A DNA stretch of 64,000 nucleotides from an uncultured Actinomycetota bacterium (GCA_963715595.1 OY970255.1:155796-219795), one strand, 5' to 3'; positions 49,480-62,880 are shown, numbered from the stretch's first letter. Notes: generated from the sequence alone by a model not told the origin. A program made the numbers and translations.

Positions 49480-51492
49480 GTGTCGGCCGTGAGCGTCCCG
49501 GAGCACGACGACCACCGTCCGCTGCGGATCGCGATGGTGGGGCAGAAGGGCCTCCCGGCCACCTGGGGCGGCATCGAGCACCACGTCGAGCAGGTGGGGC
49601 GGCGGCTCGCCGAGCGCGGCCACGAGGTCACGGTCTACTGCCGCGGCACCTACGGCGAGCAGATCCCGGACGAGCACCTCGGCATGCGGCTGCGCCGCAC
49701 CTCGACCCTCGGCACCAAGAGCCTGGACGCCATCGTGCACAGCGCGACGTCCTCGCTCGCCGCGGTCGCCGCGCGCGCCGACGTGGTGCACTACCACGCG
49801 ATCGGGCCGGGCCTGGTGGCCCCGCTGCCGCGGTACCTGACGTCGGCGGGCGTCGTGCTCACCGTGCACGGGCTCGACCACGCCCGCGACAAGTGGGGCC
49901 GGGCCGGACGCGCCGCGCTCGGCGCCGCCCACCTGATGAGTCCCCGCGTGCCGCACGAGCTGGTGGTGGTCTCGCAGGCGCTGCAGCAGCACTACCGCAG
50001 CCGGTTCGGCCGCGAGACCGTGCACGTGCCCAACGGCGTCACGCTGCGCGACCTGCCGGCCGACCCGACCGCGGTGCTCGACCGGCTCGGGCTGCGCGCC
50101 GGCGGCTACGCCCTGTTCGTCGGACGGCTGGTGCCCGAGAAGCGACCCGACCTGCTGCTGCGCGCGTTCGCCCGGGTCCCCACCGACAAGCGGCTGGTGC
50201 TGGCCGGCGACTCCTCGTTCACCGACGACTACGTGGCCGGGCTGACCGCGGCGACCTCGCGCGACCCGCGGGTGGTGATGGCCGGGTTCACCGTCGGCGA
50301 CGACCTCGCGGCGCTGTACGCGGGCAGCGGCGCGGTCGTGCAGCCGTCCTCGCTGGAGGGGTTGCCGCTGACCCTGCTGGAGGCGATCGGGCACGACGCC
50401 CCGGTGGTGGCGTCCGACATCGCCCCGCACGTCGAGGTGCTCGGCGCGGGCTCGCCGCGCCACCTGCTGTTCCCGGTCGACGACGAGGACGCCCTGGTCG
50501 CGGCGCTCACCCGCGTGCTCGCCGACCCGGGCAGCGCGGCGGGCGCCGACGCCCGACGCTGCGCGACGACGTGCTCGCCCGGTACAGCTGGGACGCGGCC
50601 ACGACCCGCCTCGAGGACGTCTACCGCCGGGTGGCCGGGCGGGCGGCCGGCCAGGAGCGACGCGAGCGCCTCGTGCACGGGGCCCGCAGCCGCTCCCGGT
50701 CGGTGGTGCGCGCGGCGCGCCGGCGCGCACGCCGTCCGGACGAGCGGCCCCTGCCCGACTTCCTGGTCGTCGGCGCGATGCGCAGCGGCACCACCTCGCT
50801 GTACGCCGACCTGGCGCGCCACCCGCAGGTGCGTGCCCCGCTCGCCAAGGAGCTGCACTACTTCACGCTGCACCACGACCGCGGCACCGACTGGTACCGG
50901 CGCTGCTTCCCGCTGCTGGCCGAGGGCCAGCAGACCTTCGAGGCCACGCCGTACTACCTCTACGACCCGCAGGTGCCCGCCCGGGTGGCGGCGACGCTGC
51001 CGGACGCCCGCTTCGTGGTGGTGCTGCGCGATCCCGTCGACCGGGCCGTCTCGCACTACCTGCACACCCGCCGCACCGGTGAGGAGCCGCTCGCGCTCGC
51101 CGAGGCGCTGGCCGCCGAGCCCGAGCGCCTCGCCTGCGGCGGCGGACGCGTCCCCCCACCGGCGGCACGAGGCGGTGCGCCGGTACTCCTACCTGGCGCG
51201 CAGCCGGTACGGCGAGCAGCTGGCGCGCTGGTTCGACCACGTCGACCGCGACCGGGTGCTGGTGCTGCGCACCGAGGACCTCGCGCAGCGCCCGCAGGAG
51301 GTGCTCGACCGCGTCCACGAGCACGTCGGTCTGCCCGCGTGGCGCGCGGACGGTTTCACCCGGCACACCCGCCGGCGCGAGGTGGCCGGCACCGACGTCC
51401 CGGACGACCTGGTGGCCGCGCTGCGCGCCGAGCTCGAGCCGGACGTGGCGCGGCTGACCTCGCTGCTCGGGTGGGAGCGCGGCTGGTGGTGA
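49480..51492 (+). CDS. GT4 glycosyltransferase fused in-frame to sulfotransferase 4 (class A); 2 frameshifts
   Basis: The GT4 part is RIAMVGQKGLPATWGGIEHHVE...FVGRLVPEKR...EGLPLTLLEAIGHDAPVVASD...LARYSWDAATTRLEDVYRRV. An Arg-rich linker of about 40 aa follows, then PDFLVVGAMRSGTTSL and RFVVVLRDPVDRAVSHY. There is no stop in any of the three frames between 50580 and 50770. Shifts lie near 50555 and 51140. Confidence 0.7.
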   Translation: MSAVSVPEHDDHRPLRIAMVGQKGLPATWGGIEHHVEQVGRRLAERGHEVTVYCRGTYGEQIPDEHLGMRLRRTSTLGTKSLDAIVHSATSSLAAVAARADVVHYHAIGPGLVAPLPRYLTSAGVVLTVHGLDHARDKWGRAGRAALGAAHLMSPRVPHELVVVSQALQQHYRSRFGRETVHVPNGVTLRDLPADPTAVLDRLGLRAGGYALFVGRLVPEKRPDLLLRAFARVPTDKRLVLAGDSSFTDDYVAGLTAATSRDPRVVMAGFTVGDDLAALYAGSGAVVQPSSLEGLPLTLLEAIGHDAPVVASDIAPHVEVLGAGSPRHLLFPVDDEDALVAALTRVLADPGSAAGADARRCATTCSPGTAGTRPRPASRTSTAGWPGGRPARSDASASCTGPAAAPGRWCARRAGAHAVRTSGPCPTSWSSARCAAAPPRCTPTWRATRRCVPRSPRSCTTSRCTTTAAPTGTGAASRCWPRASRPSRPRRTTSTTRRCPPGWRRRCRTPASWWCCAIPSTGPSRTTCTPAAPVRSRSRSPRRWPPSPSASPAAADASPHRRHEAVRRYSYLARSRYGEQLARWFDHVDRDRVLVLRTEDLAQRPQEVLDRVHEHVGLPAWRADGFTRHTRRREVAGTDVPDDLVAALRAELEPDVARLTSLLGWERGWW

Positions 51493-51499
51493 CGGGCGG

Positions 51500-61469: not shown

Positions 61470-62880
61470 GGGCGATCGCGGACGCGGCGGCCACCAGCGC
61501 GACCAGCGGCCACATGCTCACGACGTTGGACATCAGGTTCGCGCCGAGGCTGCCGACCGAGAAGCAGGCGGCGACGCCGAGCGCGCCGGCGCCGACGGCG
61601 TGCTCGAGGGACCCGCGCGCGCTGCGCCGCAGGGCGAGCCACCCGGTGCGCAGCATCAGCACGTGCACCGCCAGGTACGCGACGAGCCCGAGCGCGCCGG
61701 TCTCGACCAGGGCGCGGACGACGTCGCCGTGCGGCTTCTTCTCCTGGTCGGTGCGCAGCTCGGTGGTGCCGAGCCCGATGCCGGTGACCGGGTCGTCCTG
61801 GACCAGCGGCACGACCTGGGCCCAGTAGTCGAGCCGCCAGCGCAGACCGTTGTCGTCCTCCCCGGACTCGACCGACAGCGCGGCGTAGCGCGCCCCGAGG
61901 TCGGGCACGGTCGCGAAGGCGAGCAGGCCGGCCACCACCAGGACGACGAGGGTGCGGATCCGTCGCTGCGCGAGCGCCACGACCACGACGCCCACCACCG
62001 CGGCCGCGACGGCCGCACGGGTGAGGGTGAGGACCAGGAAGGCGGTCGACAGCGCGAGCACCAGCGCCATCGGCAGCTTCAGCCGCCGCTCCAGCGCGGG
62101 GTAGAGGGCGATGCCGAACACCACCATGACGGCGAGGAACCGCGCGAAGGAGTTGGCCTGGTCGAGCGGCCCGGTGAGCCGCGCCACCCCGCCGCCGTCC
62201 TCGATGGGCGGGTTGCCGAGCACGTACCGCAGCGCCGTGTACCCGAGGGGCACGAGCAGGCCCGCGTAGACCGCGGCGACCACGCGCACCAGCGACGCGC
62301 GGTCGGTGACGAGCTGCTCGACCACCACGAACATCGTGATGATGCTCAGCAGGCGCAGCACCTCGACGGCCCCGGCCTGCGGGTGGTCGGAGCCGATCAC
62401 GCTGATCACGGCCGCCGCGCCGAAGACGAGCAGGGCGGTGCGCAGCGGCGACCCGCGCAGCGACCGGCCCGACGCCACCTGCGCCGCGAGCCACGCGAGC
62501 GCGGCCACGAGCAGCAGCACCGACAGCATGCTGGCGGGGTCGAGCCAGCGCTCGACCCCGGAGTCGCCGCGGGACAGCTTCACCAGGTCGAGGCTGGAGC
62601 GGGCGGCGAGCGCGACCAGGACGAAGGACGAGAACCGGGTCAGCGCGAGCACGCCGAGGGCCAGCGCCCCGGCGAGGGCGAGGGGGAGCACGGCCTGCGC
62701 CTGCTCGCCCTCGACCAGGCCGACGGCGCTCACGACCGCCGCGGGGACGACGGCGAGCGCCGTGACGACCCGGGCGACCAGCGCGACCCGCGGGTGGGTC
62801 CGCCGGCCGGCGTCCGGGGCGGGGTCGCTCGCCCGGTCGTCGGCGGGGGGGACGGGCGGGCGCACCTGCGTCGAGCTCAC
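61453..62880 (-). CDS. O-antigen ligase / Wzy-like polymerase family membrane protein
   Basis: Intact from the GTG at 62880, which is preceded by GGAGGTG. It is multi-TM with a loop [34 protein letters not shown]...[18 protein letters not shown] (Wzy_C/O-antigen ligase signature). Confidence 0.7.

Follow-up and report, generated by a model that had tools for sequence, protein, structure and literature searches.

What might a bacterium make with six sulfotransferases set among two glycosyltransferases? The question is raised by a 64,000-nucleotide (nt) stretch of DNA, hereafter the window, from an uncultured Actinomycetota bacterium (GCA_963715595.1 OY970255.1:155796-219795). Between mazG and eno, at positions 49480-62880, it carries 11 genes for sulfotransferases (STs), glycosyltransferases (GTs) of family GT4, a hydrolase and the Wzx, Wzy and Wzz proteins of polysaccharide assembly, several of them out of frame as assembled. 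In this report, we find that these genes probably constitute a locus of four operons that makes a densely sulfated glycan by the Wzx/Wzy route, and that their interruptions are most likely errors of assembly rather than signs of decay.

The G+C content of the window is ~76%, and spurious long open reading frames (ORFs) are therefore abundant. Coding frames were located first by the periodicity of G+C at third codon positions (GC3) and afterwards by homology. Domains were assigned by a Pfam scan of the raw frames, which was repeated on frameshift-corrected conceptual proteins. For comparison, 37 loci were fetched with ST4 as the query; they come from many Micromonospora species, Pedococcus metagenome-assembled genomes (MAGs) and other Actinomycetota. 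A further contig (L038), which carries the closest homologue of the first gene of the cluster, is collinear with positions 43945-61440 of the window at ~86% nucleotide identity; its wzy gene lies beyond the fetched part. To define genes in the relatives, we relied on homology mapping and on the calls made in L038. For the mapping of frameshifts, single intact ORFs from relatives were aligned to the window with a frameshift-aware aligner; a nucleotide alignment to L038 followed.

Components of the locus

The 11 genes cover the region almost without gaps (lengths in amino acids, aa; TM, transmembrane):

49480..51492, + strand: GT4a-ST1 fusion; N-terminal GT4, ~35 aa linker, C-terminal heparan-sulfate-type ST; corrected product 672 aa
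51500..52420, - strand: ST2; 306 aa, uninterrupted; PF13469 66.7 bits, E 4.5e-18
52417..53508, - strand: ST3; ~363 aa, uninterrupted; PF13469 60.7 bits, E 3e-16
53501..54730, - strand: GT4b; 408 aa when three 1-nt insertions are ignored; corrected 110 bits over the full profile
54778..55698, + strand: ST4; 306 aa, uninterrupted; PF13469 49.5 bits, E 8e-13
55695..57124, + strand: predicted PslG-like lipoprotein hydrolase (clan GH-A, GH39-like fold); ~476 aa
57121..57955, + strand: ST5; ~273-277 aa; corrected 78 bits over profile positions 2-213
57946..58760, - strand: ST6, TPST/Stf1-like; ~260-270 aa; corrected 143 bits over the full profile
58757..59823, - strand: Wzz-type chain-length regulator (polysaccharide co-polymerase, PCP); ~350 aa, two TM segments; PF02706 25.8 bits
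59924..61469, - strand: Wzx flippase (MOP/PST family); corrected PF01943 59 bits over profile positions 3-273, plus MatE
61453..62880, - strand: Wzy-like polymerase (Wzy_C/O-antigen-ligase family); 475 aa, uninterrupted; PF04932 68 bits

A preliminary description, made from the sequence alone, had placed six ST domains, two GT4s, Wzz, Wzx, a Wzy-like protein and a lipoprotein hydrolase in this region. All are found where it put them: Sulfotransfer_3 or Sulfotransfer_1 matches occur at all six ST positions, and the remainder is borne out by Pfam, with a lipobox and a PslG-like fold in the case of the hydrolase. The cluster proteins are named “hypothetical” or given generic names, none scores above any family cut-off in an NCBIfam scan, and the Pfam scan detected no regulator gene in 49.5-62.9 kb.

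Adjacent genes are translationally coupled. Start and stop codons overlap as GTGA at 52417-52420 (ST3 to ST2, the GTG start of ST2 overlapping the ST3 stop), 55695-55698 (ST4 to the hydrolase), 57121-57124 (hydrolase to ST5) and 58757-58760 (Wzz to ST6), and the GT4b stop overlaps the ST3 start in GTGGCTGA at 53501-53508. These five overlaps, which had also been listed before, are all present and, read in gene orientation, match the gene boundaries called in the intact relative L038. The divergent starts of GT4b and ST4 lie only ~48 nt apart (54730-54778; 30 nt in L038); this gap is too short to hold two leaders, which suggests that back-to-back promoters give rise to leaderless transcripts.

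All six STs exceed the curated cut-off of 27 bits for the superfamily profiles PF13469 and PF00685 (ST1 61, ST2 66.7, ST3 60.7, ST4 49.5, ST5 78.3 and ST6 143 bits), the ST1 domain lying at 50760-51489. In the raw frames, the ST5 profile was split into halves, ST6 appeared as three fragments in three frames, and the GT4b match was likewise divided between frames. Each of the six has the 5'-phosphosulfate-binding loop (G-x-x-R/K-S-G-T/S) and the 3'-phosphate-binding R/K...S motif that bind 3'-phosphoadenosine-5'-phosphosulfate (PAPS), and these motifs are invariant or nearly so over 5-36 orthologues per ST. The G-GRSG-T loop is invariant among the ST2 orthologues (33 loci). ST4 represents a divergent subfamily, extended at the N terminus by a segment rich in Trp and Arg, and has K-P-L-C-D-S in place of R-D-P...S. 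Pairwise similarity among the six is at most 51 bits and each forms its own orthogroup; they are old subfamilies with little resemblance to one another. Of the 37 loci, 30-36 have orthologues of ST1, ST2, ST3, ST4 and ST6 (ST2 in 33, ST3 in 34, ST4 in 36 at 49-65% identity, ST6 in 34), with identities of about 37-68% overall; those of ST5 occur in only five.

The nearest solved structures differ from one ST to the next. ST1 matches heparan sulfate 3-O-sulfotransferase (3-OST; E 2e-23) and N-deacetylase/N-sulfotransferase (NDST; 4e-21) over ~195 aligned residues that include the PAPS-binding loops; within the window, it is closest to an ST at 20.6 kb (~42% identity), in another polysaccharide cluster. 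ST3 matches a polyketide synthase (PKS) sulfotransferase of the CurM/OLS type (4gox, 2.6e-9). For ST6 the matches are tyrosylprotein sulfotransferase (TPST) 2 (6.6e-13) and 2zq5 (3e-7), an entry that the search tool labels an uncharacterised protein and that we take to be Mycobacterium tuberculosis Stf1. ST5 weakly resembles TPST, ST4 gave marginal matches only (E >= 0.017) in the sequence search of the PDB, and ST2 gave none. Looking up the exact ST4 sequence returned no entry, for which a differing start codon or a hidden record would account. Against the NCBIfam NoeE model, whose cut-off is 500 bits, the L038 orthologues of ST6 and ST5 score 51 and 27 bits; no NCBIfam ST family was found for ST2, ST3 or ST4 of the window or for the GT4-ST1 fusion of L038. 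No TM segment or signal peptide was detected in any ST or GT of the cluster.

That ST1 is joined to a GT4, as had been claimed, is confirmed by intact homologues of 665-669 aa (P0001, of 665 aa and 87% identity at 100% coverage, P0002 and P0004; identities 87%, 87% and 69%), which were retrieved with the corrected product. The same search returned the window's own mis-framed product of 667 aa on its 3.8 Mb contig. The homologous reading of the window gene runs in frame +0, changes to +2 (indels at 50531-50558, net -1) and returns to +0 (indels at 51135-51151, net +7); the corrected 672-aa product matches the GT4 profile and positions 2-182 of the Sulfotransfer_1 profile, its GT4a part spanning 49480-~50650. 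In frame +2, the GT4 C-terminal motif ARYSWDAATTRLEDVY is followed by the linker of ~35 aa and by the ST1 P-loop PDFLVVGAMRSGTTS without a stop codon. Two separate genes were considered and rejected, since there is no stop in any + frame at 50369-51080, both motifs share frame +2, and the closest relatives have intact fusions. In more distant relatives GT4a and ST1 are separate: L016 has them in divergent orientation, whereas 4-5 kb lie between them in L002 and Micromonospora. We also noted an 820-aa protein on an ENA contig (P0117) in which a GT4a homologue (57% identity) is joined to an APS-kinase domain (PF01583). The GT4a family is thus tied to sulfate activation by a second fusion, independent of the first.

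The family of the hydrolase comprises 64 proteins, of which nearly all are annotated as “hypothetical” and almost all lack a Pfam domain. The lipobox of the hydrolase, LAGC, has a cysteine that is invariant in the family, and E177 (in ENE) and E329 (in WE) are invariant in 35 sequences. By profile it does not fall in GH39 (PF01229 17.6 bits against a cut-off of 26), and NCBIfam gave no match. A Foldseek search with the AF2 model (pLDDT 86.9) placed PslG (5bx9; E 8.7e-18, TM-score 0.57/0.64) first, followed by GH39 enzymes. As modelled, the protein is thus PslG-like, with a clan GH-A fold that retains the predicted acid/base and nucleophile Glu residues.

The three assembly proteins are identified with differing clarity. 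The Wzx orthologue of L038 has at least 11 TM-like segments. The Wzz protein has a two-TM topology, and its orthologues have similar lengths (345-383 aa as stop-to-stop ORFs in L003, L037 and L018; 348 aa in L038). The Wzy-like protein has ~13 TM-like segments and, in a single frame, 49.5% identity to its L001 orthologue. Its PF04932 (Wzy_C) profile does not separate polymerases from ligases, and in NCBIfam it comes closest to IctB (47.8 bits), followed by an exosortase-associated O-glycosylation ligase (38.3 bits) and by the O-oligosaccharyltransferase TfpM (29.5 bits), with each score well short of its cut-off.

Conservation, sulfate supply and proposed pathway

The module is not unique to this genome. 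It is syntenic in Micromonospora species, Pedococcus MAGs and other Actinomycetota; core orthologues are found in 30-36 of the fetched loci, and the same five STs co-occur with the two GT4s, the hydrolase and Wzx/Wzy/Wzz across at least two actinobacterial orders. In one Micromonospora (L037) the module comprises five STs, two GT4s, the hydrolase and Wzx/Wzz/Wzy, without a further GT or a phosphoglycosyltransferase; the genes on either side, for an ABC-transporter permease and for a peroxidase, are unrelated to it. The two relatives that were annotated in detail have five (L037) and seven (L002) STs, for an ST:GT4 ratio of 5-7:2. Extra genes within the modules of relatives (L002 1231-2910, 15477-16304 and 17254-18615; L001 4319-6679) encode DUF5122/Rax2 beta-propellers, a beta-helix protein and the seventh ST.

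The window also encodes a route from sulfate to PAPS, together with a candidate for priming (PAP, 3'-phosphoadenosine-5'-phosphate; APS, adenosine 5'-phosphosulfate):

11044-11952, + strand: CysQ-like PAP phosphatase (Pfam Inositol_P)
~11970-12860, + strand: CysD (Pfam PAPS_reduct)
12704-14113, + strand: CysN (Pfam GTP_EFTU)
39832-40806, - strand: TauE-family anion transporter (Pfam TauE, 142 bits)
40810-42105, - strand: APS kinase CysC (Pfam APS_kinase, 192 bits)
6340..7880, + strand: WbaP-like phosphoglycosyltransferase of the first polysaccharide cluster (Bac_transf profile split over two frames)

CysD and CysN account for the ATP-sulfurylase step of this route. In L001, L003 and L016, homologues of cysD and cysN are immediate neighbours of the orthologous cluster; a cysQ-like homologue was found there only in L001, and in L034 a cysC-tauE pair adjoins the ST4 orthologue. 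The cysDN, cysQ-like and cysC/tauE genes of the window may therefore be tied to the present cluster.

As the preliminary description had noted, the region lacks a priming enzyme: none of the 11 tiled genes encodes a phosphoglycosyltransferase by Pfam. No WbaP homologue was found within 10 kb of the cluster in the 37 related loci, nor did Pfam detect a phosphoglycosyltransferase or further GT among ten otherwise unassigned ORFs of L001, L002 and L037. The WbaP-like gene of the window is 42 kb away, is itself frameshifted near 7560, and is a candidate without any link to the cluster. Given that the relatives, too, lack a priming enzyme close to the cluster, an enzyme of the WecA type with a housekeeping role is at least as likely to prime; the O-antigen loci of Escherichia coli, which rely on a distant wecA, provide a precedent.

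We propose the following pathway. A priming enzyme encoded elsewhere (WecA-type, or the WbaP-like protein of 6.3-7.9 kb) would start a polyprenyl-diphosphate-linked sugar, which the two retaining-type GT4 enzymes would lengthen into a short repeat unit. The six soluble, signal-less STs, acting on the cytoplasmic side of the membrane, would use PAPS, supplied through the cysDN, cysC and cysQ products of the same window, to sulfate different positions of the lipid-linked unit, with ST1 working while fused to GT4a. Wzx would then flip the anionic unit, Wzy would polymerise it and Wzz would set the chain length; outside the membrane, the lipoprotein hydrolase may trim or release the polymer.

Several of these results fit the earlier suggestion that a small repeat unit is sulfated densely or at diverse positions: the ST subfamilies are mutually unrelated, the PAPS motifs are conserved, STs outnumber GT4s by 5-7:2, the orthologues are widespread and PAPS supply is near. 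A bolder extension is that the product is a hypersulfated polymer resembling a glycosaminoglycan (GAG), with at least four sulfates per repeat of about three sugars and a charge density equal to or above that of heparin. We regard this as possible but doubtful.

The remainder of the neighbourhood is as follows. The gene order of the window is glmU-prs-...-rplY-pth, the first polysaccharide cluster, mfd, a DAO oxidoreductase gene, mazG-rlaP, the present cluster and eno; we take glmU...mfd-mazG-eno to be a conserved actinobacterial neighbourhood. The first polysaccharide cluster (~6300-37400) has its own WbaP-like phosphoglycosyltransferase, Wzx (14.1-15.6 kb), Wzy_C protein (34.9-36.2 kb) and GT4/GT1 enzymes, and it also encodes beta-helix, DUF5122 propeller and fn3/Ig surface proteins; its propeller and beta-helix proteins are similar to those inserted in the modules of relatives. 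Three further STs lie in it (19748-20400, 20617-~21300 and 36258-37331). With nine STs and a full PAPS-supply set within the same 64 kb, the window reads as a sulfation island. The mazG gene at 47547-49383 encodes a fusion of a MazG nucleoside-triphosphate pyrophosphohydrolase with RlaP, a polymerase-beta-like nucleotidyltransferase of an RNA-repair pathway; the fusion recurs in L038, and its true stop is at 49381-49383, not at 49476-49478. Between mazG-rlaP and the GT4-ST fusion, L038 has a 4.4 kb insertion (5593-9990 of that contig) that is absent from the window and encodes a 949-aa protein without Pfam matches and two ABC-transporter ATPases.

Alternative readings and the interrupted frames

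Several points weigh against a locus that makes a sulfated polymer. A priming enzyme was found neither in the cluster nor within 10 kb of it in relatives. Sulfotransfer_3 proteins can sulfate non-glycan acceptors, and the nearest solved relatives of ST3 and ST6 are of the PKS and protein-tyrosine types, respectively. The PF02706 score of Wzz is marginal (25.8 bits against a cut-off of 25.5), and the Wzy_C family includes ligases and O-oligosaccharyltransferases. Lastly, the frameshifts are patchy, with none in ~22 kb (25-47 kb) against ~18 in the 13 kb of the cluster; they do not sit at homopolymers, and their cause may therefore not be technical.

The alternative that survives best, although we consider it unlikely, is that the cluster makes not a polymer but a short sulfated oligosaccharide, which a Wzy_C-family ligase or O-oligosaccharyltransferase attaches to protein, lipid or cell wall; a phosphate-free anionic wall glycopolymer could be an example. 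The cluster has a single PF04932 protein, of a family that includes WaaL-type ligases as well as Wzy polymerases, and the sub-cut-off NCBIfam similarities given above (IctB, the exosortase-associated ligase, TfpM) lean the same way. On the other hand, a Wzz-type co-polymerase is translationally coupled in the same operon, and a PslG-like endoglycosidase fits a polymer.

Decay is the next possibility. About 18 net frame-disrupting indels affect seven of the 11 genes, which makes the raw ORFs (e.g. 49480-51492, 55889-57124 and 58348-59859) misleading; ST2, ST3, ST4 and Wzy are uninterrupted. The aligner switched frame within GT4a-ST1, GT4b, the hydrolase, ST5, ST6 and Wzx. A switch is also implied in Wzz, which ends at the TGA of 58757 only if its frame changes in the C-terminal tail, at 58784-58848. 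Relative to L038, isolated 1-nt insertions occur at 53624, 53891 and 54055 in GT4b, 56556 and 56970 in the hydrolase, 57468 and 57827 in ST5, 58256, 58406 and 58563 in ST6, and 60332 and 60762 in Wzx. Further indels lie at 57751 (ST5), 58593 (ST6) and 60545 (Wzx), and besides these there are deletions of 1 nt, few in number, and several small patches of complex change. Two apparent features were discarded: the raw Wzz ORF that runs to 58348 is a read-through artefact whose tail matches an off-frame reading of ST6, and an additional Wzx shift at 59932, which came from a lenient-penalty alignment, was dropped because the nucleotide alignment to L038 puts the stop at 59924 without it.

If these lesions were real mutations, the cluster would be a set of decaying pseudogenes and no sulfated polymer would be made. 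Their number, their density compared with 25-47 kb and their mostly non-homopolymer contexts favour such a view. At the same time, those contexts are unlike natural slippage, which speaks for error; homopolymer slippage and phase variation were ruled out as causes on the same ground. However, frameshifts of the same kind extend beyond the cluster. By Pfam they split glmU (~625), TauE (~3912), rplY/ctc (~5040-5110), pth (~5680), the WbaP-like gene (~7560) and the first Wzx (~14750), and by nucleotide alignment to L038 the flanking DAO (47118) and mazG-rlaP (49122) genes. Both pth and glmU are essential genes, so that their lesions cannot be real in a living cell.

The cluster genes themselves also look maintained. 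Correction regains full-length profile matches for ST6, GT4b, ST5 and Wzx (143, 110, 78 and 59 bits). Every cluster gene covered by L038 is intact there, as are the other genes of that contig, at lengths equal to the corrected ones (GT4b 408 aa, ST2 306 aa). With indels ignored and codons taken in the L038 frame, the ratio of nonsynonymous to synonymous substitution rates (dN/dS) is 0.11-0.36 for the cluster genes compared, shifted segments included, and is the same in the flanking genes (DAO 0.17, MazG 0.23). GC3 is 0.92-1.0 in every shifted segment, and the cluster genes show neither nonsense mutations nor large deletions. The source is a single 3.8 Mb contig, which we take to be typical of long-read assembly and count against decay. 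Because core genes are hit as well, L038 is intact and dN/dS is purifying, we read the frameshifts as most likely assembly errors. The preliminary description had allowed that most of these ORFs might prove to be genuine pseudogenes; the damage to essential genes, the intact relative and the signature of purifying selection argue otherwise, and we hold decay to be improbable. A practical consequence is that the assembly of this genome contains many indel errors and that its ORF-level annotation is unreliable.

Least likely of all is that several STs only happen to lie in the locus and act on acceptors other than the glycan, such as lipids, peptides or secondary metabolites: ST3 is indeed closest to the PKS sulfotransferases CurM/OLS, and ST6 and ST5 to TPSTs, NoeE and Stf1, but the STs are interleaved and start/stop-overlapped with GT, hydrolase and Wzz genes, the same five travel with the same partners in at least two orders, and PKS, nonribosomal peptide synthetase and lipid-synthesis genes are absent from the loci.

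Relation to known systems

To our knowledge, very few bacterial sulfated polysaccharides are genetically defined, namely synechan and a few marine capsular polysaccharides. Mycobacterial Stf and rhizobial NodH/NoeE are PAPS-dependent glycoconjugate STs that act singly on glycolipids or lipo-oligosaccharides; the present STs, in contrast, form a six-enzyme set inside a Wzx/Wzy locus and score far below the cut-offs of those families. Production of sulfated polysaccharides by actinomycetes has only been suspected (PMC13390465), and the pathways and genes behind the sulfated GAG-like extracellular polysaccharides (EPS) of environmental biofilms are not known (PMC10483923).

The locus is compact and widely conserved, and our reading of it, if true, would provide six new regiospecific carbohydrate STs, a natural GT-ST fusion that would couple chain extension to sulfation, and a hydrolase for a sulfated glycan. 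Were the hypersulfated GAG-like polymer also real, this would be the first genetically defined bacterial route to a GAG mimetic, in soil- and plant-associated Gram-positive actinobacteria, and might account for the GAG-like sulfated polymers that chemical analysis has revealed in environmental biofilms (PMC10483923). Cultured Micromonospora species carry the module intact, and the prediction is therefore directly testable.

Individual components have recognisable counterparts. Only ST1 resembles the animal heparan sulfate 3-OSTs and NDST (1t8t, 1nst), from which it differs in being bacterial and fused to a GT4; the other five STs are unlike them. The hydrolase shares with PslG of the Pseudomonas aeruginosa Psl locus (GH39; 5bx9, 4zn2) a predicted (beta/alpha)8 barrel with a C-terminal beta-sandwich, and a place inside an EPS locus. 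Identity between the two is 16%, however; PslG is TM-anchored whereas the present protein is a lipoprotein, and the substrate here is presumably sulfated.

At the level of whole clusters, sulfated-EPS loci are already known. The wps-1 cluster of Actinoplanes missouriensis, for which a sulfated EPS product is predicted, encodes two STs, GT2 and GT26 enzymes, a GH26, a methyltransferase and a kinase-like protein (AEM 2026, PMC13390465). Like the present locus, it is an actinomycete Wzx/Wzy/Wzz cluster with STs and a glycoside hydrolase but without a priming phosphoglycosyltransferase; ours has six STs, two GT4s and a GH39/PslG-like hydrolase instead. Judged by domain content, the two are analogous, not orthologous.

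Synechan is made by the xss cluster of Synechocystis sp. PCC 6803, in which eight GTs are accompanied by two STs and for which the sulfate:sugar ratio was measured as 2:8 (Maeda et al. 2021, PMC8205485). That cluster also encodes a priming GT (XssP) and the XssQRS regulators, and sulfation of its lipid-linked repeat unit is proposed to precede flipping (PMC8205485). The present locus resembles it as a predicted Wzx/Wzy/PCP-dependent EPS cluster with STs of its own from distinct bacterial subfamilies. Compared by gene content, the present locus has six STs and two GTs without a priming GT or regulator, adds a GT-ST fusion and a PslG-like hydrolase, and belongs to a Gram-positive actinobacterial host. 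The present locus thus departs from the known clusters in its ST:GT ratio, which at 3:1 is inverted relative to the 1:4 of synechan, in drawing its six STs from unrelated subfamilies, and in having both a GT-ST fusion and a hydrolase of the PslG-like kind.

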